IMG/VR virus record: IMGVR_UViG_3300006076_000002
Coordinates: 1 to 64,000 of that record
Source: a virus
Length of the DNA stretch: 64,000 nucleotides
Direction: 5' to 3' (one strand)
Of this stretch, positions 2,669 to 64,000 are shown piece by piece. Positions within the stretch are counted from its first letter, which is position 1; every line of letters starts with the position of its first letter. A program made the position numbers and the translations under genes. The notes below the pieces were generated by a model. That model searched no databases. It had not been told where the DNA came from and was given only the letters and a program-made list of their open reading frames with translations.

Positions 2669-2670
2669 AA

Positions 2671-2980: not shown

Positions 2981-2989
2981 TAGGGCTTA

Positions 2990-44311: not shown

Positions 44312-44313
44312 CA

Positions 44314-45517: not shown

Positions 45518-46153
45518 ATGAGCGCTAAAAATAGAGGTAGTACAACAATCTTACAAGAATTTTACCCTACACCTACTACTACTGTAGATAGTATACTGGA
45601 TGAAATAAATTGGAGTAAAATTACTACCTTTTGTGAACCTTGTAAAGGTGACGGAGCTGTGTATAATAAAGTACCCCTACTAGATGAGCATAAATACTAT
45701 TTCGAACTAACAGAGGGTACTAACTATTTAGACCCTAAAAACTCAAAACAAGTAGATTTAATTTTAACTAATCCTCCTTTTTCGTTAGCAGAAGAGTTTA
45801 TAACTAAAGCTAAAAAAGAAGCTAAGTGTGTGGTTATGCTCCAACGAGTAAATTTTCTAGGGTCACAAGCACGTAAAGAGTTTTGGAGTAAAAACCCACC
45901 TACCCATCTATTTGTATTAGCAAACAGACCTAAGTTTGTAGCTCGTTGTAATAACAATAAACGCACAGAAGACGGGAAAAAAGTTTGTAACAATAAGGAA
46001 TCTTACCAAATTACCGAACCGGCACAACCGTGTAATACGTGCGGTAAACTAACCGTACCATCCAGTGATGCAACTGAATACGCATGGTTTGTATGGTGTG
46101 AAGAAAGTCATTTAGATATGATTAAAAAAGATAAAGGTGTATATGTTATTTAA
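45518..46153 (+). CDS. N6-adenine DNA methyltransferase
   Basis: FYPTP, EPCKGDG, TNPPF, YAWFVW. Confidence 0.85.
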   Translation: MSAKNRGSTTILQEFYPTPTTTVDSILDEINWSKITTFCEPCKGDGAVYNKVPLLDEHKYYFELTEGTNYLDPKNSKQVDLILTNPPFSLAEEFITKAKKEAKCVVMLQRVNFLGSQARKEFWSKNPPTHLFVLANRPKFVARCNNNKRTEDGKKVCNNKESYQITEPAQPCNTCGKLTVPSSDATEYAWFVWCEESHLDMIKKDKGVYVI

Positions 46154-46177
46154 CACATCTATAAATAAAGGAATACA

Positions 46178-46738
46178 ATGAAATTTAAGAAATTCATGAA
46201 AAGAATTAAGCAGCTACACAAGCATCTACCAGAACAAGTAGAACTGCCATCAGAAGAATGGTTCAAAGCTAATGTACCAAAAGAAGGCAGAATTGATTAC
46301 TTAGCTAGAGGTGTACATAAGTTATTAACTGTAAAGCTACAAGAAGTTGACAATATTGAAGAACCTGCTAAAAACACTAACGAAGATACTACTGAATCCT
46401 TAACTGGTATCGACGCAACTCTAGCTGAACGTGGTTCTAACTACGGTAAATTCGAAAACCACGCTAAATTATCACAAAGTTTGCAAGTACTTTTTGAGGG
46501 GCATGTACGCAGATATGGACAACCAGAGAAGTATACTGACTCTATGAACGAAGCTATCCAGCTAATCATGCACAAACTGGCTAGAATTGCTAACGGTTCG
46601 CCAATGTACATAGAGAACTTCAGAGACATATGCGGATATGCACAACTAATAATAAATGAGTTGGAAACTACTGAGGGTGCTACTGATGCTAAAGTATCTA
46701 AAATTGTAAGAGAAGATAATAAGTGGGTAGAGCAGTAA
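46178..46738 (+). CDS. DUF6378-like phage protein
   Basis: TLAERGSNYGKF...HKLARI.NG...DICGYA. Confidence 0.7.
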   Translation: MKFKKFMKRIKQLHKHLPEQVELPSEEWFKANVPKEGRIDYLARGVHKLLTVKLQEVDNIEEPAKNTNEDTTESLTGIDATLAERGSNYGKFENHAKLSQSLQVLFEGHVRRYGQPEKYTDSMNEAIQLIMHKLARIANGSPMYIENFRDICGYAQLIINELETTEGATDAKVSKIVREDNKWVEQ

Positions 46739-46935
46739 TGTCCTATCTATCTCTTGACTTTCTATTATATTTAAGTAGATGGGTAGTCTCAGCTTTCGCG
46801 GTTATGCCTGTACTATATATATTAGTTAAGTATAACTGTTGCAAAGGTAAATACGAAGAATACATTCACTTAATACTAGTACAAGTATTCGGTGCATTTA
46901 TATTCTTTTATATTGATCAATGGATATTTTCATGA
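46738..46935 (+). CDS. small two-TM membrane protein
   Basis: Likely start ATG 46738 (TAATG); hydrophobic. Confidence 0.55.
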   Translation: MSYLSLDFLLYLSRWVVSAFAVMPVLYILVKYNCCKGKYEEYIHLILVQVFGAFIFFYIDQWIFS

Positions 46936-47570
46936 AGAAGTATGATATAGTTTATATAGATCCTCCTTGGCAATTTAACAAACGATCAAACACAAAAACT
47001 AGTTTTGGTGGAGGGGCAATGGCCCATTACCCTACAATGCCTATGAAAGATATAGCAGCATTAGATTTCACAGTATTTATGAAAGAAAATGCTCTTATGT
47101 ACTGTTGGGTAACTCTAGCTAAACTGCCTGAATGTATTGAAGCTATACAAAAACCAAATCTACAATTTGTAACTACTGGTTTCGTATGGGTAAAAACTAA
47201 CCCTATAGGACACACAAAACCACAAGAGGGTATCAATATATTTAATCCTTCTGATAGTACTTATCGTAAACCTTTTTATGGTGTAGGAAACTATACAGCA
47301 TCTAACGCAGAGATTTGTTTAATATTCCGCAAAGGTAAAATGGTAAAACATAAAGAAAAAGTATCACAGGTTATACTATCTCCAAGAGAAAAGCACAGTA
47401 AAAAACCTAAAGAAGCTTATGACAGATTAGAAACTATGTATCCTTCTAACGAGTTTAACAAGATAGAAATATTTGCACGCAATAGCGCTAAAGGTTTTGA
47501 CGTAATAGGTAATCAGCATAATAACATACAAATTGAAGACTTTATCAAACAGTACGAGGATGCGGAATGA
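46932..47570 (+). CDS. MT-A70 family adenine methyltransferase
   Basis: YIDPPW, HYPTM, FVWVK, HSKKP, EIFAR; start likely at the ATGA overlap (46932). Confidence 0.9.
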   Translation: MKKYDIVYIDPPWQFNKRSNTKTSFGGGAMAHYPTMPMKDIAALDFTVFMKENALMYCWVTLAKLPECIEAIQKPNLQFVTTGFVWVKTNPIGHTKPQEGINIFNPSDSTYRKPFYGVGNYTASNAEICLIFRKGKMVKHKEKVSQVILSPREKHSKKPKEAYDRLETMYPSNEFNKIEIFARNSAKGFDVIGNQHNNIQIEDFIKQYEDAE

Positions 47571-47785
47571 GCTGGGAACCAGGAACACATGTACAAGCAT
47601 TTGGCGCTAAGTCTTTACATGCTGGGCAATCAGGTGTAGTTGTGCGAGATGATGGAGAATACATTATGTTATTAGCAGATGATCCTTCGTATAAACAAGC
47701 ACATAAAAACAGTATAGATGAGCCAGATTCACCAAATAGATATTTCTGGGTCAGTAATCTGTGCTTAAAACAACTAAAGGATTAA
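47567..47785 (+). CDS. hypothetical SH3-like protein
   Basis: Coupled ORF. Confidence 0.55.
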   Translation: MSWEPGTHVQAFGAKSLHAGQSGVVVRDDGEYIMLLADDPSYKQAHKNSIDEPDSPNRYFWVSNLCLKQLKD

Positions 47786-47789
47786 ATAA

Positions 47790-48167
47790 ATGAAATGGAA
47801 AGATAGCCTTAAACACTGGCGTAAAAACCGAGGTTTAACAACACCACAAATAAGTATCAACCAAGAAACAGGCAATCCTGCAATTATAGATATGCTACTT
47901 GAAGAAGTGGAGGAACTCCGCTTAGCTTTACTAGATAACAATGAGCATGAAATCATAGATGCTTGTAACGATCTAATTGTATTATCTGCTAATCATGTAG
48001 CTCAATCAGGATACGATATTGACCTTACAATGAAAGAGACTCTTAAAGAAATCTCATCTCGTGAAGGCTCAATCAACCCTACTACAGGTAAATGGCAGAA
48101 AGACAAAGCTCAAGACCCTTCTACTCTTTACAAGGCTGATTATTCAACCTGTAAATTGAAGTCTTAG
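47790..48167 (+). CDS. MazG-like nucleotide pyrophosphohydrolase
   Basis: WRKNRGL, LLEEVEEL, IIDACND. Confidence 0.75.
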   Translation: MKWKDSLKHWRKNRGLTTPQISINQETGNPAIIDMLLEEVEELRLALLDNNEHEIIDACNDLIVLSANHVAQSGYDIDLTMKETLKEISSREGSINPTTGKWQKDKAQDPSTLYKADYSTCKLKS

Positions 48168-48316: not shown

Positions 48317-51300
48317 CTACAGTCCTCTATGGATAGCCTCAACTAGTGGGATTTCTGTCCCACCATTAAGTAGACTGCCCAAACCGTGGAATGGATTAAT
48401 TCTATTCCAGAATACAGAGAACAAGTTACTATCAAAGATATCCGATTCATCACCCAACACTGCTTGCTCTAATTTACTAGCTGCAACTCTTGCCGGTGAT
48501 TCCTTCAGCATTTTAATATTAACTCTCTGTATATTTGCAAAATACGTCCAAAATGCTTCAGGACCCATTCTCTCTAACCATCTGACAGTTTTACTGTTTA
48601 TAACTTTGCTATAGTTAATAAAGCTATCCGTAACAAACCTGAATACATCCTCCTCATTCTCACCTTTTTCCATCTTAGCCCAATACATAGCAGCTCTAAA
48701 GTGAAAGTCACTCTCTCTAGTAGCTCTCAACAAGAACTTACCTGCTGCACTTCTCTGAGTCAAGAACAACGTCTCAACTGCATCTCTAGCTAATCCTTCA
48801 TCACCTGTAACCTTTTCAGATAATCCTCTCAATTTTTTACTAATTTTATTTGTATCATCATATATTGCAACATCATCAATTACCGACTGGTACAAACCTT
48901 TAGCCATCAATGGTCTCAACGGATTATTATCCAACTTGTACTGCACATCTGATATGTTTCTCTCAAGATTAGCTTTTTTACTCCCACTAGCACCTTTAAC
49001 CAATCTCTGCAATCTATGTAACTCCTCCTCATCTTTTTTCCAGGTATCTAATGATCTAATACTTTTAATCATCAACGTAATTGCCTGTCTCACCGGCACT
49101 CCGCTATAAAACAGTATCCTCATATTCGACAGTATATTATTCCATATAGTACTAGGTAATCTGACAACCACATTACCTTTGAGCAATCCTATGAAATCCT
49201 TCCAGTAACTTTCAACAACCTGTACTTTATATTTAGTTCCAACATCCACCTTATTAAATATTTTCATATCTGTAATACTCGGCTCTTGATATCCGAATAA
49301 CTGAGCTATCAAATCTTTACGTATATAAATCTCTCTCCTTGGATTGTCATCTACACTTTTAAGCTGTTCTTCCATTGTCATACGATATCTTTTATCTGTA
49401 TCATGTATTCTCTTATACACCTCAGTACCAGGCTTTTTAGCATCTTCACGTATTTTAGCCTTATCTACTTCTATGTTATGCTTAATAATATTATCTCTGG
49501 CATCTGGCGGTAACAATCCCCATAGTTCCTCACCTTCAGTTTTAATCCCATATTTACCTTTATCCAGTAACTCTTTATTACCATTCTTATACATCTCACG
49601 TCTAGTCTCTTCACTTAAGTCAAAATCCTTAGCTCTTACGTGTATAAACAATCTCGAAGTATCTTTAGTTGGATCGTTAGACTTAATATAACTATCTGCA
49701 TAATCCTTATACAATATCCTAAGTACCTTTTGATTCTCCTTATCTGTCATCGGTTGTGTGCCTACGTGTCCCTCACTCTTAGCCAACACTTCTGCACCTC
49801 TAGTATCTAATTCTAAATATCTAATTTTGTCTTTCTTGCTAATTCCGTACCTAAAATCTGTTATATACCCTTGATCATTGAACACTGGATGCATATTTCC
49901 TATATTTTCACCATCCATATATTTTTGCACTAATGCACTCCTACTTCTTATATACAACTTCCATACAGCATCTTCAGTCAATCCTGGATTTGACATTCTT
50001 ATCTTATCTCTAAGTAGCAGCCCTTGCACTTTTTCTCTCTGCAGACCTACCGAACCATCTACACGTCCAGCTACCTGCAAGTTACTATTTACATACTTTC
50101 CGTACTGCACTGGATCAGCATCCTTCAAGTCTCTATCTAGCACTTCAACCAGTGTAAACCCTAACTCATTCATCTTTTTCTTCTCAGATACCGGAGCTAT
50201 CTGTAGTTCTCTATTCCTATTGTAAGTATCTCTCACCTGCCCTTTTACATAGCTTTGAGGTTCATACTTATCATACTCCTCTTTCACAGCTACCTGCAAT
50301 CCTTTAGCGTACTCTGTATATGCCATAACCCCATCAGGATCTTTCTCCAGTAATTCCAGCATAGTATCTTTAGCTTTGTCATCTATATGTGTCAATGCGT
50401 ACAACGATATCAGCTTATCCACATCTTTAACTAACTTCTCATCCACTTCTGTTTCCCAGTAAGGCTTCATCTCTATGTGTGTACCAAACCCTCTAACTAT
50501 GTTCTCTGCATTGGTTCTCAACCCTACCCCAGTAACCGCATACTGAGCAGCTTTGTGTGCATCCTTAGTTATCGCTTTATACCAGAAGTCACTACCTTGC
50601 TTAGCTATTTTAGCCTCTAATTCTTTAATATCTTTCCCAGGATTAGTTATATACCCTTTTAAACCATATGCACTCTCAGCATCCAATGCCTGTAGATCTG
50701 CTGACATAATTACTGCTTCCAGTGCATGGTCATACTTCTTATTCTCTTTCTTAAGTAAATCCACTTTCTTAAACATAGTCTTATACACATCTACCAGTGT
50801 ACCTTCATAGTTCTGGTGTCTTAATCTATCTATGTGTGATCTAAACTCCATAGTTAAGTCGGTAACCAGCTCTAATGTCTTTCTACCTGCCGTAAAATCT
50901 GCAAACAACTTTCTCAAGAAGCTATCCTCTGCAATCTTCATAGCTGACAAATAGTTACCCCATAGGATCGCTAGGTGTGGTCTCTGGTACTCATCTGCAC
51001 CTTGTATAGCAGCTTTAAACTTAGGCAGTATTCTAGCTAACTTGATAAACTTGACCAGTATATTGTCACTGTCTTTAGGCCAATTATGCTTTATTGGATT
51101 ATACAAATCATCAAACTCTTGTTGTGTCATACCTTGTTTAGTTACACCTAATGTATTCTGTAGTAAATCATCCACTCTACCCGATATTTTCTTATCTACT
51201 TCATCTAACACTTTATTCAATGTATCTGATACTTTTTCATCTGCATGCTTACCACGTCTCATTGCTGCTTCACTACCGTACTTATCCTTGATAGCCATCA

Positions 51301-52537
51301 ACTTGTATATCGTTTTAACCGTCTCTTCTTCTACATTCTTACCCTTAGCACCTTTAAACTTATGCACCACTTTAGCTAGAAAGTCAGCTATCATATGCAC
51401 TACCTTATCATATGCACTTTTATATTCTTTCTCTTTCTTCTCTGTAGTTATACTTTCTAGTGCATTCTTCATCTGTTTATTCGTCATAGCATATGCCATA
51501 AACTCCTGCAATCTTACAGATGCTGCTCTAGTATCTTCTTTACCTTTTCTACCGAAGATGTAATCATATCTATCTTTAGCAGCATCTTTCTCCGCTTCCG
51601 TATACAACCCATCCTTAACTAAATGTTCTGGTTTCAGAGTCTCTCTAGCCTTCTTATACAGCTCTTGTATCTGTAACTTCAGTGCATCTGCTTCTGTACC
51701 TGCATGTTTATTGTCAAACACCCAATCCAATGCTGCATGTACTACTTCATGTACCAGTGTCTCCTCATTTGTCATAGTTAACCTATTTCTAGCTTCTTGA
51801 CTTAATGTACCTGTCTTTATTTTTATCGGAGCTAGTGGGTCATTCTTATCAAACTGTCCGTAAGGCTCTACCACTTTAGCTATCTGTTCTGTATTCAGCT
51901 TAACTACTGTCTTACCCAGATCCTTACTCAGCTTCATCACATTGCTCAATACTTCATCTAAATGCTTCCCATGTTCACTGTCATACTCTTCACCCATCAG
52001 ACTTTTATCTAGTCTTCTAAGCTCGTCTCTTACATTCAGTATCGTATTTTCTGTACTCTCTTCACCAAGAAACAGTCTATCTATATCCTCATCTGTGAGT
52101 TCATCTTTGTTGTACAGCACATCATTCACGTACCCTCGTTTAATTACCTCTGTAACCCCTGGCATCTCCACCACTGTTCCATTAGCTTTCGTAGCTATAC
52201 TTTTCTCACTACCCCTCTCAAACGTGTACTGGTGATTGTTATCTAGCACAACTGTAGTCTTACCTGCTCTAGGCTTGTATATGACTTTCTTTATACCTAG
52301 TTTCTTACTCTCTCCACTCTTCAGTGGGTCCTTGTTGCTGTAGTGTACCCAGACATCCTTTGGCATGTTATCCTGTAGATATTTCTCTGTAGCCTTTTTA
52401 CGTGACTGCCAGTATACCTTCTCAGCTGTAATCTGCTTAGTGAGAGCTTCTACTTCTCTCTCTAGCTCATCACCTTTATACTTACCTTCTAACTCTTCTC
52501 TTACTTTAGCTTCTATGCTTCTTGTATCACATGCCAT
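48317..52537 (-). CDS. large virion protein, probably the separated C-terminal domain of N4-type virion RNAP
   Basis: 1406 aa, TAATG-coupled to the vRNAP gene; ETLVHEVVH, QEFMAY, FINY; size close to the N4 vRNAP CTD (recalled ~1400 aa). Confidence 0.7.
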   Translation of the reverse strand: MACDTRSIEAKVREELEGKYKGDELEREVEALTKQITAEKVYWQSRKKATEKYLQDNMPKDVWVHYSNKDPLKSGESKKLGIKKVIYKPRAGKTTVVLDNNHQYTFERGSEKSIATKANGTVVEMPGVTEVIKRGYVNDVLYNKDELTDEDIDRLFLGEESTENTILNVRDELRRLDKSLMGEEYDSEHGKHLDEVLSNVMKLSKDLGKTVVKLNTEQIAKVVEPYGQFDKNDPLAPIKIKTGTLSQEARNRLTMTNEETLVHEVVHAALDWVFDNKHAGTEADALKLQIQELYKKARETLKPEHLVKDGLYTEAEKDAAKDRYDYIFGRKGKEDTRAASVRLQEFMAYAMTNKQMKNALESITTEKKEKEYKSAYDKVVHMIADFLAKVVHKFKGAKGKNVEEETVKTIYKLMAIKDKYGSEAAMRRGKHADEKVSDTLNKVLDEVDKKISGRVDDLLQNTLGVTKQGMTQQEFDDLYNPIKHNWPKDSDNILVKFIKLARILPKFKAAIQGADEYQRPHLAILWGNYLSAMKIAEDSFLRKLFADFTAGRKTLELVTDLTMEFRSHIDRLRHQNYEGTLVDVYKTMFKKVDLLKKENKKYDHALEAVIMSADLQALDAESAYGLKGYITNPGKDIKELEAKIAKQGSDFWYKAITKDAHKAAQYAVTGVGLRTNAENIVRGFGTHIEMKPYWETEVDEKLVKDVDKLISLYALTHIDDKAKDTMLELLEKDPDGVMAYTEYAKGLQVAVKEEYDKYEPQSYVKGQVRDTYNRNRELQIAPVSEKKKMNELGFTLVEVLDRDLKDADPVQYGKYVNSNLQVAGRVDGSVGLQREKVQGLLLRDKIRMSNPGLTEDAVWKLYIRSRSALVQKYMDGENIGNMHPVFNDQGYITDFRYGISKKDKIRYLELDTRGAEVLAKSEGHVGTQPMTDKENQKVLRILYKDYADSYIKSNDPTKDTSRLFIHVRAKDFDLSEETRREMYKNGNKELLDKGKYGIKTEGEELWGLLPPDARDNIIKHNIEVDKAKIREDAKKPGTEVYKRIHDTDKRYRMTMEEQLKSVDDNPRREIYIRKDLIAQLFGYQEPSITDMKIFNKVDVGTKYKVQVVESYWKDFIGLLKGNVVVRLPSTIWNNILSNMRILFYSGVPVRQAITLMIKSIRSLDTWKKDEEELHRLQRLVKGASGSKKANLERNISDVQYKLDNNPLRPLMAKGLYQSVIDDVAIYDDTNKISKKLRGLSEKVTGDEGLARDAVETLFLTQRSAAGKFLLRATRESDFHFRAAMYWAKMEKGENEEDVFRFVTDSFINYSKVINSKTVRWLERMGPEAFWTYFANIQRVNIKMLKESPARVAASKLEQAVLGDESDIFDSNLFSVFWNRINPFHGLGSLLNGGTEIPLVEAIHRGL

Positions 52538-55500
52538 TAGTCACACTCCAACTGATCTAGTATTTTATTTGCTATTATATCCATTTCTGGGTTAGTCTCT
52601 GCTTTAACCTCTTGCAAAGGTCTATTAGCTAACGGAGTATCAACCACCTCGTCGGGCTCAACACTATGATTTTCGTACACCAATTCTTTTGGTAATTTAC
52701 TCTTATCTAGTTTATTCTTAGGCACTTTAGGTACGTATTCCTCTTTACCTTCAGCTCTATACTCAGCACCATCTAATGCACTGTGTCCTACACTGAAGTC
52801 AGTCTCAAACAGCACTTTACGACCTTCTTCAGCTCTTTTCTGTAATTGTTCCATCTCTTTCACTGTACTTCTCATTGTAGGTAGATGTGTTATATCTCTC
52901 ATTCTACCAACACTCATCATAGCTATCCTAGCATTATCACTCATATCCATTTCACTGACTGTATTCAGGTACTCGTTGTAAGCATCGCTCAAATCACCAT
53001 CAAGCTTACTCAGGAATGTTTTAACCGCAGCTAACACTTCATTTTGATTCTTACCTATCTCAACTACTAATTCTTTCTGTTCTGCGTATGACAACCCGTC
53101 TAATGCTGTAGGTGCTTCACCTTGTATCATATCGTATATGTCACTTACCGGATTCGTAAGCATCTTTCTAACTACATTCAGTACAGACTCCATAGCCGTA
53201 TCATCTTCTACTTTCTGTATGACTTCTTTATCTACACCATTCAACGTAGCATACAAGCTATCTAGCATCTCTGTAGTTAAACTCCAATCCTTGCTCAAAT
53301 GATATGCAGACTTGTTGTAAGACTTAGTTACACCCATAGCTTTATCTACTGTAGCGAAGTTTGCATCATGCACTCCTAATGCTTCCCACTTAGCTAGCAC
53401 TTCAGCTTGTATCGAAGCATCCTGTGCGTGTATCGGCATTACCGCTCCACTAGTAAACGCAACTACCATCTTGTACAACTCACTGTTAGCTCTCAGCTTA
53501 TCACCGTTAGCTCTCTCTATCTTACCCTGGAGGTTTATAGCAGTGTTCATAGTACCTTCTGTCCAATCACCTTTAGCAGTCTTGAACAGCACCATTTGAT
53601 CCCCATTACCATTGTCTAATGCCATATTTATAATCGGTAAGATAACCTTATTAGCTTTGAGTATAGCATCCACTTCTTTAGTAGTTAACGGTACCCATTT
53701 ACTTTTATGTTTACCCTCATTCTTCTTTTTAGTTTCTATATCTATTTGTTTATTCACTTCTTCTAATGCAATCTTACCTATCAACGCAATCGTACTATTC
53801 GTAGTTCTAGTAGCCTTAATCAATTCTCCATACTGTTCTTCAAATGTATCTCTAATCGGTTTACCAACCACTCTAGCTACATGCTCTTGTACCATCTCGT
53901 AGAAGTTATCCGGTATCTTCATGTTAAGCACATTCATCGGTGTTTTATCTAACTCTGCCCTCAACTTACCTAACCATGCATCTACAGCTTCACTTTGCTT
54001 ATCGTAGTACATTTTCTTACCTGTAGACGGATCTACCATCAAATACGAAGATGCTTTTAATGCTCTCTTCATCAGGTCAAATGCACCCTCTACTTCACTT
54101 ACTTTCTTAGATGTTGCCATCGTAGTCATTAACGCATTCAAGTTACTTTTAGAGGGATATGGTGTACCACTAGTAGATAATGCTCTCTTAGCTATACTAT
54201 TGATAATACCTTTCATACCTGAACCGTAGTTAAGTACCATGAACGGATGTTTCATGAATGCTCTAGATATTTCTTCTATCAGATGTTCTTCACCATCACG
54301 TGTACCTTCTCCAAGTAACTCCATAGCTACTTCCATACCTTGGAGTATACCTTTAGCTCTTTTCTCTATCTCTGCTTGCGTACCTTTAACTAAAGCTGGG
54401 TGTGGAACCGGTTTTCCTATGAAACTTGGTACCGGATCTACAAACTTTAATTCCGCTAACCCTTTACTGTTATCGAGTACTACTCCTTTAATTTCACCCT
54501 TCACATTTATATTTACTTTTTTAGCGTTTTCCACTTTCTGCCTAAATAATTCAGCAGGTTCTTGGTATGCATCTCTCTTAGTCTTATCATCAGCTATTTC
54601 TGAATACTTTGGCACGTGTCCATCTTTTACTCTCATGAATCCACCACGCTCTAATTCTTCAAACGTTTTCTTCATGTCAAGTTTACCACCCTTCACGAAT
54701 ATTGGCATCTGTAGCATCTTGAGTATGTAACCGCTAGTTACTGCATCCGTCTCTAACATGATCGTAGACATATATGCTTCATCACTAGCACTTTCTTTAT
54801 GGTTCATGTACTTGAGTATTTCTATCATACCTTTTATACCATGCTCATCATGCACACCTAGCACATCCACTAACTCTTTCAGATCGTCATTTGTAATATC
54901 TTGTATTGTAGGTATCTTAGCATCACCAAACACTCCATTAACTTTAGCTTCTAACCCTGCATACTGTTTTATAGATTTACCCATAGGTAACTTATCTACA
55001 TCAACACCTAGTGCTTGCCCGATAGCTAACTTTAATATCTTCTCTTCTGTACTACCTAGTTTAACTTCAGCTTTACCCATGTCTGTAGCAAATCTATGCA
55101 ATAGTATTGATTGATGGTCAAATTTACCACCTATGATACCAAATCTAAAGTTTGTAAGTATTCTCCACTTCTGCCAGAATGGTTTCTTACCTTTATCTGT
55201 AGCTTCATACACTTCATCTAGTAGTTTCTTCTGTCTATCTATAGCGTCATTCTTACCTTTAGCACCTTCTCTTTCATTCACATATATCGTATCTGGGTCT
55301 ACTTTACCTAATATCTTATCTAGCAGTGAGTATGGTACATCTTCTCCGTTCTCATCATATCCTGTAGTGTCTGCAATTCCATCTAGCTTATCTAACCCTG
55401 TCATGAAATCTTCACCGATAGTCAATCTTGTATCACTCTGCTTCTTAACTGCTTTAACTCTAGGTTCCGACACTGAGAACAACTTAGACACACTTTGGTG

Positions 55501-58500
55501 TTCAGTAGGCGTATCCTCCATCTCATGCTTGTTATCTTCTGTGTATATACCCAATGAATCCTCAGTAGGTTCTAATACCTTTTCTAAGTCTGTAGTCATA
55601 CCTTTATGTGCTTTAATCAGATCTTTAGCTGTAGTTGTCAAATTGTATGTAACTATATCTGGTTTACCTGCATCTTTATCATTCTCATATATCATTGCAG
55701 CTGGAGTCTTATACCCTTTCTTAAACACCATTTCTTTCTTAAGTTTTATATCTCTATCTTTAGCATTTAGTATTATATACTCAGCTTTCTCTAACGCTAA
55801 CATACCTAGCATACCTAACTCTGCTTTTAGTTTCTGCTCTATATACTCAGTATCTAACCCTTCTGGTGCATCCTTTACAGCTTTAAGTCCTAGTGCTTTC
55901 CAAGCCTTATTACCTATAGTACTTGACACATAATCCATTATTCCATCAAAGTCTTTGATTGACATTCTATCAGTCTGGCTTACCGGAGCATTTTTATCCA
56001 TACCCTTCAACGCTCTTACTGCATTGTTGTCTCTACGTTCTGAGTCAAACTTAGCCATACTATCTGTCAACACTTCTACTGCGCTTGTTGCCAATGCCTC
56101 AGCTACCTTACCGTTTAACTCTAGTTTACCTTTATTAGCGAACTCACCTTCAGGCACTGTATATGCCATTAGCATTCTACTTACACTTTGGAATCCTTCT
56201 ACACTATCTGTACCAAACCACACCATGTTAGCTCTTGCAGATGATAAGTCATTCTCTACTACACTTTGTACACTTCCTGTCAATTTCTTTATAGTTACAC
56301 CTGCAGTAAGCAAGTTCTTCTGTGCTACACTTGACAGTGTTTCCTTTTTCTGTGCTAGTAACTCTCTTAGCACATCTAAAGCTGTAGCATTTAAATTCTT
56401 AGGCTCTGTAGCAGCTTTGAAGAACTCGTGTAAGTAACCTTTGCCGTATGCAACATCTACACCATTTTTAGCTTCAGTAACGTGATGGGATTTATTGTCA
56501 GCAGTCCATGCAAGTATACTACTAGCTACTTTGTTATCTCTTTCAGCTGTTTTATCTATCAGTTCAGATTTCTTTTCTTTGATTGCAGCTTTGGTGTCTT
56601 TTACCTTATTATTAACCTCTTGCATTTGTAATATACGCTTTATGGTTTTCTTTCTAGTTTCTGTTAATTTTCGTTCTTTGCCTTGTGTTTGGTCTTTTAT
56701 GAAATCTTTTTTATATTCAAGCTCATCTTTTTTAGCTACCTTTTTGTCAATAGCCTGTTGTATACTACTTTCTACTTTTTTGTTGGTAGTTTCAGCTAGT
56801 TTATTATACAACGCATCAACACTGCTATCTATGCTTGCTATATAGCTATTTATACGCTTTATACTAGCATTAGACTTTTCTAACTGTTTAGCTGTCCACA
56901 TCCTAGTTTGTATGGCATTTCTGAGTATATGTCTTTTAGTATTTTTAAAGTTATACCCATCTGTCAGTTTATCTAGTGTGTTCTGTTTCTCGTATACTTC
57001 TTTTTCTAGCTCTTTAATTTCAACCTCTAAATTGGCTATTTCTTTATCTATACCTGTTAGCTCTTCTTGCTTAGGTTTTGTGCTCTCTGTATTGCCTTGT
57101 CCAGTACTTTGTTCTGTTCCTGTAGTAGTGCTTTTTTCTTCTGTAACAACTTTAGTTTCTTCATTTTGTTTTGCATCTATTTTTCCTTTATTTAGTAATC
57201 CTAATTTTTTAAGCGCAAATACATTTGCATCTTTTTCATATAATGCAGGATCAGCAGTATATTTTTTTCTGAACTCTTCTTTTCCGTATTTGCCTATCTG
57301 TTGTGTATGTCGATACTCGTGTAATAACAGAAATTTACGTATATCTTGTGGGCTTAGCTTACTTATCGTATCTAAGAAGTCTATACTATAGTCTTTATTT
57401 ATGCTATCTGTAACCTGTTGTTTAGTAAGTATAACCTCTTTAGACTTTTCGTCTTTAAACTCTCTATGAGTACTTAAGTAATCTAATACCTTTTTTGCTG
57501 TAATGTTCTTACTGAGTCTAATTTTACTACCGTCAGAAGAGGTACCAGCCAACTGTCCATTAGAAGCATCTGCCGAGTAGTATCTAATAGGTATACCAGC
57601 TACAGTAGCTGTCTGTACATTCGCATTTTTCTCTTTTACTGCACCTTCTACGACAGGTGCAGCTTCCTCAACCTTTTGCTGCGTAGTTTCAGCTTGTTGT
57701 GGCTTACCTACCTCTAGTGTACCGTTGATAGTGTCTGTAGCTAAACTGTTTATGTCTTGTAGTAACTTGTACTCTTTCTCTAATTTTGCTGTAAACCCTT
57801 CAGACTTTTTACCGTCATACACGTACTTACTTCCAGGATAGTTCACATCTACTTTTAGTTTAGCTAGGTCATTTTTAGCTTTATCTAACCCTGCAGCATC
57901 TTTACCTATAGCCTCTAAGTTTTTGATAGTTTCACGTAAGTTATCAGCCTTCTCTTTATACACTCTTTGAGCAGCTTTAAATGCATCCCTCTTCTCTGCT
58001 TGAGTACTCATAAACTTATTCATAGCTATTATTGCACTATCTCTAGCTGTATCTGATTGAGCGTTTATGACTGCATCTAGGTGTTCTAGCATCCCTAGTT
58101 TTCGCTTACCTTTGTACTCTCCACCAAGCAGCTTTAACGCTAACGATTCATTCTTATTAGCTTTATCTACTACCGTAACCCCATTAAAGTCTTTACTATG
58201 TACCAGATCACTAACCAATTTCTCAGCTTTCAGTTTAGCTAACTCTTTTACCTTTTCACTTTTAACAGTTTCATCTGTTATATCAGCTAACTCTGTCTGA
58301 ACTTCTGCCATATCCTTAGCTATTTCTTTAGGGTCCCTATTCCCTAATATTTCTGATTCACCATTTAGTTTACGTCTAAGGTTCAGAGCATCTTGCAGAT
58401 GTTTAGTAACTAACTCTTTTTCAGTTATTATCTCTGGAGTACTGTCTAATGAATCTAATGTTGTTAAATGAGTCATTAAGTCATCTATATTTTTATTTAA

Positions 58501-60678
58501 CCCAGGTTTACCATCTGAACTACCATTCAGTATAACCTTTTTCATAGCATCTTTAACTTTAACGTTCTTAGGATCATCAACCTTGCTAGCTATACTTTGA
58601 AACGTAGGTACATTTGTCATTGCTCTATTAGCGGCATCTCTACTAGCCGCTAGTTCTTCATCTGTAGTTACCTTGGCTTCTACCGGTTTACTACCTTTAG
58701 GTAATTTACTTTTTAAACTATTCACTGCGTTTGATAATTCTGCTACACCTTGAGTTGCACCTGCAATGTGTCCACCTGCTAGCCCTTCTATACCAGCCAC
58801 TTTAGCATCTAATTGATTCTTCTCATTAGCTATTATGCTTTGTAGGTCATCACCTTTCTTACCAGTATCCCACTGTTTACCTAGTATGTCTGCCCACTGT
58901 TGTAAGTACTCTTCAGTACCTTCTACTGCCATACCCTTACCGCCTGCAGCTGCCATCCTACCTGCTGACTTTAGTACTGAATGCCATAATTTATCAGTTG
59001 CTTTCTTACCTAGTACGCTAACTGAGTCTTTCAATGCTACTTTAATCGGTTTAGTGATTACCATTGCACTCTCTAACCCTATGTAAGTCTGTAATGCTGC
59101 TGATATACTAGCTAATGCAATGTCTTCTCCTCCAGTGTGTTTCTGCCCTTCAGCTTCATTTCTAGCTGCTAAGGTATCATTAGCTATTCCAGTGAACATC
59201 GCAGTAGCACCGGCTCTCTCTATTCCTTTAGCTAGTACTTTCTGAGCCATGTTTAGCTTGTTATTAGCAGCAGCAGTCAACTTCTCTGCTTGCACTACCT
59301 TACCAGCTTTCATTAACTGTGCAGCTTTCTCATATGCCTTACCTATTTTACTGCCATTCTTAACTACCATCATGCCAGCTTTTGCTTCACCAGCCCCTAT
59401 CATGAATGTACCAACGCTACCAACTACGTTACCCACGATGTTACCACTACGCATTGCATGCCATGCAGCCATCCCGTAGTTACCTTTCTTTATGTCATCC
59501 TCTACTTGTGCTTGTTCTCTTTGTGCTTGATCAGTGTTAACTCCGTATGTTGCATCTGCCATCTGACCTATGTTCTCGTTCGTGTAGTACTCTTTCGTAT
59601 CGTTGTACCCATCACCACCTAACCAACTAGCTACTCCATTCATCTTGAAACTGTGGGCTATGGCATCTTTCTTCTCTGCTTCTAGTTTAGCTCTTTCTTC
59701 TTTACTTGTGGCATTAGCTATTTGATGGTCATAGTAAGCTTCTTCTGCTTTACCTATCAACCAGTCAGGTGCGTCATTAGCTACTGCATCTATTGCCTGA
59801 CCTATTGTACTAGTAACTGTACTTGCAGTTCCTTTAGCGACCCCTTCTAGGAATCCTTGATCACCAAATTTAGCTTTGTTTAATGCAGCTAGTAATGCTT
59901 CTCCATTATCTACCGGTTGTATTTCACCTTTATTACCGAATGAGTCTTCGTATGCGAATCTTCCACCTGTATTAACTTGGTTATCATTATGCATTACCGC
60001 ATTTATGTCTACCCCTTCTTTATTCGCTAAGTATCCTAGTTCACGTGACATATTCGATTTTTGTACACCTTTTACCTTTACTGGTATATTCATGCCATTG
60101 CCGCCACTGTAGGCATTTTTACTTAAGTCCGTCCTAGCTCCCGGTATGTATGGTGCTTCCCAGTCACTATTACCATTTACTATATCAGCTAGTTGCTGTA
60201 TCTTATTCATGTTAGCTACATCTAGCATGTCTTGCTCAGTAATGTTAGCTGCAGTCTTGTGTGCATTTGGATTGTTTTGGTTTATTACGTCAGCAACGCC
60301 TTGTCTTTGTGCATCCATTGATAGTGCACTTTTACTGTATTTGTATTTTTCTGGTTGGTTACGCTTTAAGCTGGGTTCTACTCCATACATATCGTATGGA
60401 CGATTACCGTGTAAGGTCTCTACTGCATCTATTCCAGCAGTTCTGTATGTGGATTCTTTACCTGTTGTAGGATCGATTGTAGTGAATCCATCACCGTCAT
60501 CCCCTGTGTATTTGAGTATGGCATCACTGTAAGTACTAAGTCTATCTCCTGATAGTTTGTTAATCTTATCTTGTGCTCTTTGCTGTAAGTTGTCTACTTT
60601 AGTATTAGTTGAATTCGACCCAAATGCTGCTATGTTTTCCGCTATGTTTTCTGCTGGGTCTTGTAGGTATTGAGGCAT
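52537..60678 (-). CDS. virion-encapsidated RNA polymerase (N4 vRNAP type), N-terminal + polymerase domains
   Basis: 2713 aa; ETDAVTSG (A), RAFMKHPFMVLNYG (B), IHAQDA, GVHDA (C); nearly Cys-free. Confidence 0.9.
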   Translation of the reverse strand: MPQYLQDPAENIAENIAAFGSNSTNTKVDNLQQRAQDKINKLSGDRLSTYSDAILKYTGDDGDGFTTIDPTTGKESTYRTAGIDAVETLHGNRPYDMYGVEPSLKRNQPEKYKYSKSALSMDAQRQGVADVINQNNPNAHKTAANITEQDMLDVANMNKIQQLADIVNGNSDWEAPYIPGARTDLSKNAYSGGNGMNIPVKVKGVQKSNMSRELGYLANKEGVDINAVMHNDNQVNTGGRFAYEDSFGNKGEIQPVDNGEALLAALNKAKFGDQGFLEGVAKGTASTVTSTIGQAIDAVANDAPDWLIGKAEEAYYDHQIANATSKEERAKLEAEKKDAIAHSFKMNGVASWLGGDGYNDTKEYYTNENIGQMADATYGVNTDQAQREQAQVEDDIKKGNYGMAAWHAMRSGNIVGNVVGSVGTFMIGAGEAKAGMMVVKNGSKIGKAYEKAAQLMKAGKVVQAEKLTAAANNKLNMAQKVLAKGIERAGATAMFTGIANDTLAARNEAEGQKHTGGEDIALASISAALQTYIGLESAMVITKPIKVALKDSVSVLGKKATDKLWHSVLKSAGRMAAAGGKGMAVEGTEEYLQQWADILGKQWDTGKKGDDLQSIIANEKNQLDAKVAGIEGLAGGHIAGATQGVAELSNAVNSLKSKLPKGSKPVEAKVTTDEELAASRDAANRAMTNVPTFQSIASKVDDPKNVKVKDAMKKVILNGSSDGKPGLNKNIDDLMTHLTTLDSLDSTPEIITEKELVTKHLQDALNLRRKLNGESEILGNRDPKEIAKDMAEVQTELADITDETVKSEKVKELAKLKAEKLVSDLVHSKDFNGVTVVDKANKNESLALKLLGGEYKGKRKLGMLEHLDAVINAQSDTARDSAIIAMNKFMSTQAEKRDAFKAAQRVYKEKADNLRETIKNLEAIGKDAAGLDKAKNDLAKLKVDVNYPGSKYVYDGKKSEGFTAKLEKEYKLLQDINSLATDTINGTLEVGKPQQAETTQQKVEEAAPVVEGAVKEKNANVQTATVAGIPIRYYSADASNGQLAGTSSDGSKIRLSKNITAKKVLDYLSTHREFKDEKSKEVILTKQQVTDSINKDYSIDFLDTISKLSPQDIRKFLLLHEYRHTQQIGKYGKEEFRKKYTADPALYEKDANVFALKKLGLLNKGKIDAKQNEETKVVTEEKSTTTGTEQSTGQGNTESTKPKQEELTGIDKEIANLEVEIKELEKEVYEKQNTLDKLTDGYNFKNTKRHILRNAIQTRMWTAKQLEKSNASIKRINSYIASIDSSVDALYNKLAETTNKKVESSIQQAIDKKVAKKDELEYKKDFIKDQTQGKERKLTETRKKTIKRILQMQEVNNKVKDTKAAIKEKKSELIDKTAERDNKVASSILAWTADNKSHHVTEAKNGVDVAYGKGYLHEFFKAATEPKNLNATALDVLRELLAQKKETLSSVAQKNLLTAGVTIKKLTGSVQSVVENDLSSARANMVWFGTDSVEGFQSVSRMLMAYTVPEGEFANKGKLELNGKVAEALATSAVEVLTDSMAKFDSERRDNNAVRALKGMDKNAPVSQTDRMSIKDFDGIMDYVSSTIGNKAWKALGLKAVKDAPEGLDTEYIEQKLKAELGMLGMLALEKAEYIILNAKDRDIKLKKEMVFKKGYKTPAAMIYENDKDAGKPDIVTYNLTTTAKDLIKAHKGMTTDLEKVLEPTEDSLGIYTEDNKHEMEDTPTEHQSVSKLFSVSEPRVKAVKKQSDTRLTIGEDFMTGLDKLDGIADTTGYDENGEDVPYSLLDKILGKVDPDTIYVNEREGAKGKNDAIDRQKKLLDEVYEATDKGKKPFWQKWRILTNFRFGIIGGKFDHQSILLHRFATDMGKAEVKLGSTEEKILKLAIGQALGVDVDKLPMGKSIKQYAGLEAKVNGVFGDAKIPTIQDITNDDLKELVDVLGVHDEHGIKGMIEILKYMNHKESASDEAYMSTIMLETDAVTSGYILKMLQMPIFVKGGKLDMKKTFEELERGGFMRVKDGHVPKYSEIADDKTKRDAYQEPAELFRQKVENAKKVNINVKGEIKGVVLDNSKGLAELKFVDPVPSFIGKPVPHPALVKGTQAEIEKRAKGILQGMEVAMELLGEGTRDGEEHLIEEISRAFMKHPFMVLNYGSGMKGIINSIAKRALSTSGTPYPSKSNLNALMTTMATSKKVSEVEGAFDLMKRALKASSYLMVDPSTGKKMYYDKQSEAVDAWLGKLRAELDKTPMNVLNMKIPDNFYEMVQEHVARVVGKPIRDTFEEQYGELIKATRTTNSTIALIGKIALEEVNKQIDIETKKKNEGKHKSKWVPLTTKEVDAILKANKVILPIINMALDNGNGDQMVLFKTAKGDWTEGTMNTAINLQGKIERANGDKLRANSELYKMVVAFTSGAVMPIHAQDASIQAEVLAKWEALGVHDANFATVDKAMGVTKSYNKSAYHLSKDWSLTTEMLDSLYATLNGVDKEVIQKVEDDTAMESVLNVVRKMLTNPVSDIYDMIQGEAPTALDGLSYAEQKELVVEIGKNQNEVLAAVKTFLSKLDGDLSDAYNEYLNTVSEMDMSDNARIAMMSVGRMRDITHLPTMRSTVKEMEQLQKRAEEGRKVLFETDFSVGHSALDGAEYRAEGKEEYVPKVPKNKLDKSKLPKELVYENHSVEPDEVVDTPLANRPLQEVKAETNPEMDIIANKILDQLECD

Positions 60679-60731: not shown

Positions 60732-62396
60732 TTACTTTAGGTTCTTTCTAGCAGTTGGATTTAGCAAGGTGTTAGCAAGGTTTATATTCCTACTTTGCTG
60801 CAATGCCTTTATATTACGCAGTTGTTCCGCAGATAATGAACTTTTTGAAGGTTCACGATTTATTAACCCATTTAAGAAGTTCTCTACATCTCCCCCATTA
60901 GGTATTATATGCTTAGGGTGGGCTTTATCGTACTTTTCCTTAGCTATGTAGAATGATAAGGTATCAGGATATTCAGTCACCAGCATACCTGGTTTGTAAG
61001 GGTTTAAGGCAGATCTGTTTACCTCTTTACTAACTTCCTTACGCTTTTTATTATTATGGGCAGTATTTACTTTTATTCCTTTAGCTGCTTCATTTAGCCA
61101 TATGCTATCATTTGCTATTGCTTTATTTACTCGACTTTGTTGTTTACTGCCTAATCCACCATACATGCTTGCAAACCCTTCAGGATTATTTACTGCTAGG
61201 CTAGCTAATGCGTGATCCCCTTTAGGGCTGTTCAATGCATCTAGTAGTGCATTACTTGTAGGTGCTTCCTTCTTATGTTGAGTACTACTACTCTGTTTAC
61301 CCGTACTTGTTGTAATTGACTTACCTAATCTGTCAAGTATCTTGTTGTAATTGTTTCTATCAGCTAGTAACTGCCCTAACGACTTTGACGTAACGTAGTT
61401 TGGGGTAATCTTAGCTATCTGTTTATCAGTTAATCCTGGTACTGCTGCTTTATTTCTACCTGCATAACCGTATTCATTACGTAAGCCATCAACGTACTTT
61501 GCAACGTCTTTAGCTATTTTACCATTATTCTGGTATTCGAACTTGTAGTTAGTACCCCATGTACCTGGATCTTTTGAGTGTGTGATGTACTCGTATGCTT
61601 CTGCAGGTGTGTACCCTTTTATGATTTTTTCTTTACCATTTACTGTTTCAGTTCGTGGAGATGTTAGTAAGTTGAACAAGGTCTTAGCTTGTTTATCATC
61701 GTACTTGATCGGCATGTAATCAGGTGAAGCTTTATTAGTTAACAAATCTAGGTATTTTTCATTGTCGCCCGGTTTGTGTGCAAATGTATAATGACCACCA
61801 GTGGACTTACTACCATCTTTACTATTAGCTATGTTAGCTTTCATTCCCATTTGTACTAGGAACTGCTCTCTTTTCACTCTTTTATCTTCCGCGTCGTTGT
61901 ACGCTTTAGTTTGAGCTGCTTCATTAGCTAGTATCTCTTTCTTAGTATCGAATTGTTGACTCAGTAACTTTGCAGCATTAGCTGCTTCCTGTGCAGTACC
62001 ACCAGCAGCAAGCACCTTATTCGATACGTATTGACTAGCTTCACTTTGTGTTGGATTATACCCCTGTGTATACGTATCATTAAATACCTGCATCTCTTTA
62101 GGCGTAAGTTCGCGTTTACCGTTATTAGTTATTTGGTTATACTTATCAACAACAGCAGTATTAGTTCGCATTAGTAGGTCTTCTGGTCTTACTGATTGAG
62201 CATCGAATCCTTTAGCTAAGTCGGAAACTGCACTTTGCACACCCAACTTTCTCTGACGGTCTTCTTGCTCATCCTGGAACCGTTTAGCTAGTATCTGGTT
62301 CTGGAATGCTTGCTGATTTAATGCAACCTGATCTCGCATTCTTTGACGTGATGCATCTTGTAAATTGTGGCTTACCTGTAAAAATTCTGATTGCAT
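60732..62396 (-). CDS. internal virion/ejection protein (N4 gp51 position)
   Basis: 554 aa, Cys-free, Q/A-rich, directly upstream of vRNAP. Confidence 0.6.
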   Translation of the reverse strand: MQSEFLQVSHNLQDASRQRMRDQVALNQQAFQNQILAKRFQDEQEDRQRKLGVQSAVSDLAKGFDAQSVRPEDLLMRTNTAVVDKYNQITNNGKRELTPKEMQVFNDTYTQGYNPTQSEASQYVSNKVLAAGGTAQEAANAAKLLSQQFDTKKEILANEAAQTKAYNDAEDKRVKREQFLVQMGMKANIANSKDGSKSTGGHYTFAHKPGDNEKYLDLLTNKASPDYMPIKYDDKQAKTLFNLLTSPRTETVNGKEKIIKGYTPAEAYEYITHSKDPGTWGTNYKFEYQNNGKIAKDVAKYVDGLRNEYGYAGRNKAAVPGLTDKQIAKITPNYVTSKSLGQLLADRNNYNKILDRLGKSITTSTGKQSSSTQHKKEAPTSNALLDALNSPKGDHALASLAVNNPEGFASMYGGLGSKQQSRVNKAIANDSIWLNEAAKGIKVNTAHNNKKRKEVSKEVNRSALNPYKPGMLVTEYPDTLSFYIAKEKYDKAHPKHIIPNGGDVENFLNGLINREPSKSSLSAEQLRNIKALQQSRNINLANTLLNPTARKNLK

Positions 62397-62406: not shown

Positions 62407-62997
62407 TTATTGTTTCGCATACATCTTAGCAGCTTCAGCATTCGCTTTAGCATAGTTCTCACCTCTAATTTTTCTATCATTTCTAGAGTCATCATACTTT
62501 CTTTTAGCTAGTCCGTAAGTTTTTAACCCTAAGTCATACTGTTTATTAATCTGATCTTGACGTTGAGCTAGTGTTTTATTATTAGAAGTTATTCCGTATA
62601 TATCCATACCTACACCGTATAAGCTCTGTAGTCCTTTGAATCCAGCAGAAGTTGTGAAGTCACCACTAACTTTAATAGGCTCCATTTTACCAGTTTCTGG
62701 GTTAAATTTATAACTTGTTTGCTCTTGTGGTTTCCACGCTTTATCCCATTTTTCAGAGAATCCATCAAATATACCAGAGTTATTTGTAGTAGGTGCAGTT
62801 GTAGTAGGTTTAGCAAAGTATCCTACATTTTTATCATTAAATACTAATCCGTTAGCACCCATCTTAGCAGCTAGTTCTGGGTACTTTTCTGCAAAAGAGT
62901 TAAATTTATTCATATCAATTAATGTAGAACCGTCATAACCTTTACCACTAACTAGTGAAGAAGCTAATCCACCATTATTTAAAAAATCGTAACCCAT
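62407..62997 (-). CDS. virion protein (N4 gp52 position)
   Basis: Gly-rich amphipathic segment followed by coiled coil; synteny. Confidence 0.55.
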   Translation of the reverse strand: MGYDFLNNGGLASSLVSGKGYDGSTLIDMNKFNSFAEKYPELAAKMGANGLVFNDKNVGYFAKPTTTAPTTNNSGIFDGFSEKWDKAWKPQEQTSYKFNPETGKMEPIKVSGDFTTSAGFKGLQSLYGVGMDIYGITSNNKTLAQRQDQINKQYDLGLKTYGLAKRKYDDSRNDRKIRGENYAKANAEAAKMYAKQ

Positions 62998-63046: not shown

Positions 63047-64000
63047 TCATAATACTGGCAATTTTGCATCTGCTGATACTATCGGTACCATTACTTCTCG
63101 CATAGTGGAAGATAATAACACAGCAGAAGGTGCTGCTGTATCAGCTTGAGCAGTAACGCTTGAAGTATATACTAAGTAGTCTGGAGAGAAATTAGCACCT
63201 ACTAACCATTCAGGGACATTTACAGGGTCGTAGTTTTCATCTTCTAAGGTACTAACTAATATATCTCTAAATACTTCTACATATGACTCGTGTACACTAT
63301 CTTTTTCAACTAATTTATTTAGTTCTTTATTTTTATGTTCTAATACAGCCATTTTAGTTTTATAGTCAGCATCCATATGTTTCATTTTCTGCTCAGTTTC
63401 GTAATCAGATATAGTAGAAGCTATACCTGCTATAGTACCGATGTTTTGTAGTAACGTTTGTTCAGCAAAGTGATCCACTATTGCTACAGCTATGTCTGAT
63501 ATAGATGCATTCTCAAGCGCAGTCAACAACTCGCTACTAACACCATTACCTATCGCTCCTGCACCCATGGTAAGTGCTGCGACAATTACCATTCTTAGCA
63601 TCGGATTCATATCAGGAGCAAGTATGCTCATACCTATACTTATAGCCATACCACCTACTAATCCTCCGAGAAATGACCCCAATGTTAATGAAGCCCCACC
63701 TGTTTCAGGGGCAGTAAGTATTATGATAGCTATTCCAGCTACTATTAATACAAACCCAAAGAAACCACTTTGGTACCATTTAATATGTACCACCTTTCTA
63801 GAGTAGGTGTACAGAAACAGGTTACTGCTATATAGTACAGTGTATTCCCTAAAAGCTAATTCTTTATTTATAATATCAGGGTATACAATCACTAGTTGAT
63901 CTAACTTGTCTCCACCTTTTATAGTAGTGGTACCCCAACCATTATCAGAACCTACTTGACTAGTAGATATAGAGTATACACCGTCATAGGATTGAAATAT
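63047..64000 (-). CDS. structural protein (N4 gp53-like), 5' end outside window
   Basis: KWYQSGFF followed by TM helices; frame stays open to the window edge. Confidence 0.6.
   Translation of the reverse strand: MFQSYDGVYSISTSQVGSDNGWGTTTIKGGDKLDQLVIVYPDIINKELAFREYTVLYSSNLFLYTYSRKVVHIKWYQSGFFGFVLIVAGIAIIILTAPETGGASLTLGSFLGGLVGGMAISIGMSILAPDMNPMLRMVIVAALTMGAGAIGNGVSSELLTALENASISDIAVAIVDHFAEQTLLQNIGTIAGIASTISDYETEQKMKHMDADYKTKMAVLEHKNKELNKLVEKDSVHESYVEVFRDILVSTLEDENYDPVNVPEWLVGANFSPDYLVYTSSVTAQADTAAPSAVLLSSTMREVMVPIVSADAKLPVL

Follow-up and report, generated by a model that had tools for sequence, protein, structure and literature searches.

The window analysed here, a stretch of 64,000 nucleotides of viral DNA (positions 1 to 64,000 of IMG/VR record IMGVR_UViG_3300006076_000002), carries on its minus strand two adjacent genes that, judging from profile matches, encode the two parts of one N4-type virion RNA polymerase (vRNAP), and the only cysteines of the two proteins lie at the ends that face one another across the break. 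The same arrangement recurs at every genuine break in this polymerase that we found among its relatives, and the best reading of it is that the two terminal cysteines probably join in a head-to-tail intermolecular disulfide.

Two cysteines at the junction of two genes

The upstream gene (52537..60678, minus strand) encodes piece 1, of 2713 amino acids, which comprises the N-terminal domain and the T7-like polymerase domain and ends in ...ILDQLECD ahead of a TAA stop at 52539..52537. Piece 2, of 1406 amino acids, corresponds to the C-terminal domain (CTD); its gene (48317..52537, minus strand) begins at an ATG at 52537..52535, and the protein starts MACDTRS.... Stop and start overlap by one base (TAATG, 52535..52539, minus strand), with the two genes in different frames; the ORFs, their ends and the overlap had been described correctly in the original prediction. 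It had also reported one cysteine in each protein and no other in about 4100 residues, and the exact count agrees: Cys2712 of 2713 in piece 1 (TGT codon at 52543..52545, minus strand) and Cys3 of 1406 in piece 2 (TGT codon at 52529..52531, minus strand), the upstream and downstream halves of the clasp proposed below, are the only two in 4119 residues. From the 1.39% cysteine in the 38 open reading frames (ORFs) on the plus strand of the window 57 would be expected, and against that composition the Poisson probability of two or fewer is ~3e-22. The three operon ORFs upstream of piece 1 contain no cysteine.

Two codons ahead of the ATG of piece 2 there is a TGA in the downstream frame, and therefore no space for a fusion by frameshifting. 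We rejected translational bypass or frameshift fusion at the junction in view of this TGA, the lack of a slippery site and layouts that vary among relatives.

The head module of piece 2 (residues 1-200, 51938..52537, minus strand) was modelled with AlphaFold2 at a mean pLDDT of 72, with residues 11-130 at 74-89. The model places Cys3 in a free, short N-terminal coil, which would be followed by a helix (residues 5-16), a long helix (22-57) that forms part of a predicted helical hairpin, and a small beta domain (61-124). A Foldseek comparison of this model with the PDB gave no match below an E value of 0.08 and no significant fold. For the final 200 residues of piece 1 the model is of low quality (pLDDT 54), and its terminal helix (184-198) before the cysteine is a hint only. 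Complex predictions for the tail of piece 1 (220 residues) and the head of piece 2 (620 residues), supplied as alignments, scored 0.31, 0.33 and 0.29 against a mark of 0.32 and count neither way.

The split is genuine

The split is real and no assembly slip, because contigs from three other runs, belonging to three other studies, cross position 52537 with substitutions and without a single inserted or deleted letter; the frameshift error that the original prediction had named as a refuting outcome is not seen. A related locus, L001, with 77% identity in piece 2 and a G+C content of 43% (34% in the window), has its split at that same place but reads GTG-TAG-ATG in frame instead of TAATG, and again has one cysteine per piece (...ILDKCKDV at the end of the first, MGCS... 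at the start of the second).

A frameshift error that splits the gene, with cysteines that are accidental or part of a DNA signal for translational coupling, was a rival to consider, given that error-like breaks do exist in some metagenomic loci (L037, L074) and that GenBank gives no CDS over the polymerase region of Alteromonas phage AltAD45-P1 (our locus L003, KF005317.1 90623-102305) and marks it as a 'potential frameshift'. Yet the AltAD45 split has been re-sequenced and both proteins seen on gels (PMC3821669), no indel appears at the window's junction in the contigs of the three other studies, and L001 keeps the place of the split while changing its codons. We consider the chance of such an artefact negligible; the L001 layout, the contigs of other runs and the junction survey described below refute it for practical purposes.

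Related strains, ~88-96% identical over window positions 51900-53200, are found in vent metagenomes of at least three other studies. At L001 (9995-10003) and L002 (5799-5810) the junction is a sense codon-TAG-ATG in a single frame, whereas the other junctions change frame; readthrough of this TAG would yield a fused protein with both cysteines a few residues apart.

Two parts of an N4-type virion RNA polymerase

By profile comparison, pieces 1 and 2 are two parts of one N4-type vRNAP. Residues 853-2691 of piece 1 match PHROG 2206, 'virion RNA polymerase', at positions 687-2001 (E 7e-56), and residues 136-952 of piece 2 match positions 2231-3009 of the 3406 in the same family (E 9e-117), while in a tblastn search piece 2 matched annotated N4-like polymerases of 323 phage records in their C-terminal part, with 21-25% identity. 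A phmmer search of PDB sequences with either whole piece returned nothing, and only profiles reached N4. A profile of 40 CTD homologs matches N4 vRNAP (9PNR and related entries) over N4 residues 2440-3450 (E 8e-120), and a profile of 12 polymerase pieces, the window's first among them, matches mini-vRNAP 2PO4 (E 1.6e-43) over residues 244-1083 of 1104, stopping 21 residues short of the end of that chain. The homology of the 1406-residue protein to the vRNAP CTD, on which the original prediction depended, thus stands, as does its description of N4 vRNAP as a cysteine-free protein of ~3500 residues: by direct count in NC_008720, gp50, gp51 and gp52 of N4 have no cysteine. The CTD homologs share a nearly invariant HExxH motif (H263, E264 and H267 in piece 2, 51737..51751, minus strand), and subdomain C1 of the N4 CTD also has an HExxH (PMC13434306). 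Pfam searches found no family in either piece, in the three upstream ORFs or in the ORFs inserted between pieces in relatives.

We located the cut with a profile built from 13 fused, cysteine-free homologs, to positions 19-2132 of which residues 27-2547 of piece 1 align. In N4 numbering, piece 1 is aligned up to the equivalent of residue 2045 and piece 2 from the equivalent of residue 2362, and the cut falls in the poorly conserved stretch of ~320 residues between them, which includes the unresolved N4 linker 2102-2123 between polymerase and CTD. The cut therefore lies after the polymerase domain and ahead of the HExxH motif, in a poorly aligned region. The earlier claim of a split at the polymerase/CTD boundary holds, with a precision of no better than about 100 residues. 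N4 gp50 has two matches to the HExxH/EFxAxxxTN block of the CTD profile, at ~2223-2331 and ~2440-2535 (PDB 11fw_A), one copy having an intact HExxH (in C1) and the other, at the start of C2, having lost the motif. This suggests a tandem duplication in N4, and because the block matches two places the residue-level mapping of the break is ambiguous.

A cysteine rule across relatives

The survey took in 79 IMG/VR loci retrieved with the CTD profile, together with the window and AltAD45-P1 (KF005317). In each we followed the genes upstream of the CTD, calling a piece capped where a cysteine lies at a terminus that faces a break. The ejection operons of this set contain 100 distinct same-strand gene boundaries, of which 49 are capped on both sides, 50 have no cysteine and one is capped on one side only, the last being a start-codon artefact. 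Every one of the 49 two-sided caps is at a break inside the polymerase, and all 49 genuine junctions, across 30 split loci with two to four pieces, are capped on both sides. Upstream pieces carry their cysteine 0-6 residues before the C-end and downstream pieces at position 2-7, except for one at position 18 that follows from a doubtful TTG start. The great majority of the cysteine-free boundaries (46 of 50) sit upstream of the first piece of the polymerase, for example between a gp51-like protein and the polymerase N-terminus. The other four are breaks in conserved domains with contiguous profile coordinates (two in L037, one in L074 and the second break in L033), two of them with overlapping frames, a pattern that is probably that of frameshift errors.

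The distinct pieces, 79 in number with 115,082 residues, have 100 terminal and 7 internal cysteines, while the 25 fused proteins (at least 2800 residues each, 92,251 in all) have 11 cysteines in total and 21 of them have none, which agrees with the original expectation that both cysteines would be kept in split homologs and missing from fused ones. Each middle piece has exactly one cysteine at each end (L002, L004, L006-L009, L011-L015, L018, L019, L031, L072 and L076), and the outer ends are bare, first pieces never having an N-terminal and last pieces never a C-terminal cysteine. The extreme layout is that of L008 (850-13960; also L010 and L021), with four pieces of 1038, 1515, 374 and 1435 residues and six cysteines, all terminal, in three facing pairs.

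These counts bear on a rival in which each terminal cysteine acts alone, linking a piece to its own second copy or to another virion protein. A single terminal cysteine could in principle give homodimers, and N4-type polymerases have been reported to be present in more than one copy per virion. However, the caps come in facing pairs at 49 of 49 junctions, with none one-sided and the outer ends bare; the adjacent ejection proteins have no cysteine to bond with; and most of the fused forms have none either, although their need would be no different. We think it very improbable that the cysteines act singly.

The caps do not depend on gene layout. They are kept where genes overlap by 1-13 nt, where gaps are 0-20 nt and across a gap of 187 nt (L013), and in L033 (1-11902) three unrelated ORFs (3.5 kb) separate an N-terminal piece (...NLKGCALK) from a polymerase-plus-CTD piece (MALKDC), both of them capped. 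A nucleotide-level signal is therefore ruled out, and the retention of cysteines at such separations, together with their absence from error-like breaks, also argues against the frameshift artefact discussed above. The second break of L033 (2087 and 474 residues) has overlapping frames and no cysteine and resembles a frameshift error. Uncapped breaks in conserved domains, partly with overlapping frames, are found in L037 (3376-13653), L074 (2-7713), L056 (1-5519) and L026 (1617-13249); these are probably sequencing frameshifts or decayed genes and serve as a negative control for the rule.

Of the terminal sequences, only the cysteine itself is conserved. Residue 2 is any of 13 different amino acids and the flanks have a weak, helix-like hydrophobic spacing, and the terminal 'CD' that had been proposed as a motif does not hold up. 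A bacterial lipoprotein was considered and rejected as well: the cysteine of piece 2 is residue 3, directly after Met-Ala, with no signal peptide or lipobox, and residue 2 varies as just described.

As an independent sample, 1.84 billion representatives of 50%-identity clusters were scanned in full with HMMER, with residues 1-1100 of piece 2 as the query. A cysteine is present in the first ten residues of 104 of the 117 CTD-sized representatives (at position 3 in 79 and position 4 in 23), 102 of the 117 having it at position 3-5, and 100 of the 104 have no other cysteine. Among the fused representatives 14 of 15 have none. Three proteins of 2100-2440 residues that start MxC or MxxC (P0109, P0122 and P0126) consist of polymerase plus CTD and are cut only from the N-terminal domain.

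Three loci of the survey deserve separate mention. In L030 (2177-2791) a 204-residue ORF with six cysteines lies between two polymerase pieces; it starts MC..., has a cysteine 6 residues from its end and has no Pfam or PHROG match. Its sequence suggests an additional capped bead whose internal cysteines are perhaps metal-binding. In the 4400-residue fused ORF of L020, a cysteine pair (...EILTC-NGAS-CTINSK..., residues 2547-2552, 7640-7660) lies in frame within a 243-residue insert that is absent from the 94%-identical, cysteine-free L024, with flanks that look like the tail of an upstream and the head of a downstream piece, as in a clasp junction that has been fused or is as yet uncut. L059 (788-11047) encodes a polymerase of 3419 residues that reaches the end of the CTD profile and terminates in ...SWSCDC, with two C-end cysteines and no N-terminal cap; these may be a cap toward a further downstream piece, the locus stopping 490 nt later.

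Positions and evolution of the breaks

The breaks map to stretches that contain the flexible linkers of N4. They occur between the N-terminal domain and the polymerase, where pieces begin ~77 residues before the start of mini-vRNAP, in the N4 907-1007 linker; between polymerase and CTD; and on both sides of extra pieces of 224-776 residues without a counterpart in the fused proteins. These small capped middle pieces, which lie between polymerase and CTD (L004:8535-9617, L009:9327-10001, L031:8055-9281, L072:6785-9115 and L076:6155-8089), do not match the profile of fused polymerases. The window has no such piece, and the tail of its piece 1 can be aligned with where the polymerase piece ends in L009, L004 and L008.

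A FastTree phylogeny built on 66 proteins (last 1150 residues) places the window in a clade of 16 that are all split. On this tree, gain and loss of the cysteines follow splitting repeatedly, because the split state requires at least five changes. One example is the fused, cysteine-free L039, which is sister to the split and capped L052 and L058, these two carrying ~290 extra residues around the break.

A probable disulfide between the facing ends

We consider a disulfide between the two terminal cysteines the best reading because cyanopodophage A4 shows the same signature as a real disulfide: in the cryo-EM structure of its virion gp27 Cys1715 is bonded to gp26 Cys5, beside a C-terminal helix docked into the partner (PMC12002296). 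N4 gp50 is described as three globular units on flexible linkers, a string of beads whose N-terminus leads in packaging and in ejection through a ~35 Å channel (PMC13434306). The mechanism that we propose starts from a polymerase made from a pair of translationally coupled genes, in place of a single gene of 3500 codons, and from two pieces that are purged of cysteine except at their facing ends; a Cys2712-Cys3 disulfide in the virion would replace the missing peptide bond. The rejoined pieces would then form one linear 'beads-on-a-string' chain, co-packaged and drawn through the tail channel piece after piece. A break in the string would leave the downstream beads without pull, and a terminal disulfide would restore a near-linear covalent chain, the strictly terminal position of the cysteines keeping it thin enough for threading. 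After entry, the reducing cytoplasm would reduce the bond and the pieces could part. A clasp of this kind would explain the terminal caps, the facing pairs and the bare outer ends, and all other cysteines may have been removed because a stray one could mispair; ejection proteins of the family are known for their lack of cysteine (0.00075% in 191 vRNAP homologs; PMC11445570). That the bond forms in this phage, when it does so and that it is later reduced is what we infer.

Given that two facing thiols alone cannot separate a disulfide from a shared metal site, it was reasonable to ask whether a metal ion (Zn, Fe or Cu) or other thiol chemistry bridges the same two cysteines, with the same head-to-tail topology. 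The habitat is metal-rich and may be reducing, and in the window an Asp adjoins each cysteine. On the other hand, a metal is poorly held by two thiols, the residues next to the cysteines vary freely and offer no conserved second ligand, and the sole solved case of the signature is a disulfide (PMC12002296), which leaves a metal bridge unlikely.

It was also not unreasonable to consider that the bond is absent from the virion and is made during infection, for example by host periplasmic disulfide-forming enzymes as the chain ends pass, or that the cysteines are redox sensors after entry. The lack of cysteine in vRNAP has been ascribed to passage through the oxidising periplasm (PMC3715699; PMC11445570), and the site of assembly is the reducing cytoplasm. 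However, pieces that exit separately would gain little from joining later, current N4 models route the chain through a closed protein tunnel, and the A4 bond is present inside the intact virion (PMC12002296). We give this possibility little credence.

Several observations weigh against the disulfide. The cytoplasm in which virions are put together is reducing, so that the bond could arise only at a late stage, within the capsid or once the cell has lysed, and a hydrothermal-vent habitat can be sulfidic and reducing. The A4 precedent is an analogy and not a homology, because the A4 proteins have no sequence similarity to the vRNAP pieces. Four of the fused homologs (L020, L057, L059 and L075) have internal cysteines, a few pieces have extra internal ones, and 13 of the 117 CTD-sized representatives lack an N-terminal cysteine, although for most of these 13 the alignment begins well inside the query, and their gene calls may be truncated. 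The 49 junctions, moreover, are not 49 independent events, because the loci share ancestry.

More tentatively, and with somewhat less than even confidence, we suggest that terminal cysteine pairs are a general means of reversible coupling, by which podophages could build long ejected threads from separately encoded beads, cut them at any linker, extend them with cargo beads and release the beads by reduction, and on which A4 would have converged. The capped pieces of 224-776 residues and the capped, cysteine-rich protein of 204 residues would be such extra cargo. N4 CTD inhibits the polymerase on contact (PMC13434306), and reduction of the bonds could detach the polymerase both from the N-terminal domain, anchored in the membrane, and from the auto-inhibitory CTD. 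The signature of A4, in unrelated ejection proteins, would represent convergence on one design principle.

Genomic setting

The viral record is a complete genome of 92,858 bp with direct terminal repeats, from an uncultivated virus whose DNA comes from hydrothermal-vent metagenomes. The virus is an N4-like podophage, distant from N4, and 48317..60678 is part of its probable ejection operon; a megablast of the 12-kb polymerase region against cultured phage records gave no match. Upstream of piece 1, on the same strand, are a protein of 554 residues in the position of the N4 ejection protein gp51 (60732..62396) and one of 196 residues in the position of gp52 (62407..62997), both assigned by position only. 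Their order and sizes fit a gp52-gp51-gp50 operon and both are free of cysteine; the 554-residue protein has no Pfam or PHROG match and no BLAST similarity to N4 gp51, and the 196-residue protein no family match in Pfam and PHROG scans. An operon ORF further upstream (63047..63892, minus strand), read as 200-281 residues and also cysteine-free, matches PHROG 2220, of unknown function (E 1.8e-13). Directly downstream of the polymerase genes, on the plus strand at 42167-48167, are the large subunit of a ribonucleotide reductase (714 residues), a DNA methyltransferase-like ORF (216 residues) and a MazG-like ORF (125 residues). A search of the 92.9-kb genome for thioredoxin (PF00085) found none; that for sulfhydryl oxidase (PF04777) also found none, and was uninformative as it found none in any control genome either.

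Significance

How a protein of ~380 kDa leaves the capsid through a 35 Å channel is an open question, for which the current N4 model is beads on one string. If the disulfide is real, selection would keep the covalent continuity of the thread and not the single gene, which would be strong natural support for threading. The bond would also suggest that, once inside the cell, polymerase, anchor and inhibitor are parted by a redox switch, and in a cultured phage Cys-to-Ser changes or reducing agents should uncouple the packaging or ejection of defined domains. For annotation, the survey offers a criterion by which a genuine split vRNAP is capped and cut in linkers, and a frameshift error is uncapped and inside domains. 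The cysteine-free single-chain polymerase, the split polymerase of AltAD45 and one terminal disulfide in the A4 ejection proteins are already published; in full-text searches outside the subscription journals we found no paper that states a cysteine rule for split polymerases or ties it to the A4 bond.

Comparison with known systems

The polymerase domain and the CTD with its HExxH are homologous to those of coliphage N4 gp50 and other Schitoviridae vRNAPs (for example Pseudomonas phage DEV gp71; 2PO4, 9PNR), and like N4 gp50 the window's polymerase is purged of cysteine and sited downstream of two cysteine-free proteins, in what is probably an ejection operon. N4-type polymerases are, however, one chain of 3400-3500 residues with no cysteine, whereas the window has two chains with one cysteine at each facing end. 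Identity to N4-like vRNAPs is only ~21-25%, the genome is of 92.9 kb against about 70 kb, and the proteins in the gp51 and gp52 positions have no detectable similarity to their N4 counterparts.

Split inteins resemble the window's pieces in having two separately made halves with a cysteine at the junction. We rejected a split intein here, as there is neither a Pfam Hint domain nor space for one, with only one residue after the upstream cysteine and two before the downstream cysteine.

A published case is that of Alteromonas phages vB_AmaP_AD45-P1 to P4, which have genomes of ~100 kb and a split vRNAP (ORF127 and ORF126, ~2481 and 1404 residues), whose stop codon was re-sequenced and whose virions gave polypeptides of 270 and 175 kDa on gels (PMC3821669). 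AltAD45-P1 follows the cysteine rule, with a cysteine 2 residues from the end of the upstream piece (...SKHCKQ) and another at position 4 of the downstream piece (MTICT...), and falls in a different clade of the same CTD tree. For ORF127 the paper gives two cysteines (PMC3821669), and we count one in the longest ORF (2495 residues). Garcia-Heredia et al. (2013) took the AltAD45 cysteines as a sign of non-injection and did not remark on their terminal position or on a link between the pieces (PMC3821669); the disulfide, if true, would correct the inference that the cysteine-bearing protein cannot be injected.

A4 (Anabaena phage A-4L) is a 41.7-kb phage of another family (Saffermanviridae) that has no RNA polymerase. 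Three vRNAP profiles found no match in gp26 or gp27 by hmmsearch, hhalign of gp26 with the CTD profile gave a probability of 0.25%, and in the A4 paper the bond is given as a single structural detail and not as a rule (PMC12002296). What the two systems share is the arrangement itself: in the A-4L record gp27 (1717 residues) and gp26 (1114 residues) are encoded by adjacent genes and have C1715 and C5 as their only cysteines, and in A4 as in the window the genes are on the same strand and the sole cysteines are at the C-end of the upstream and the N-end of the downstream protein.

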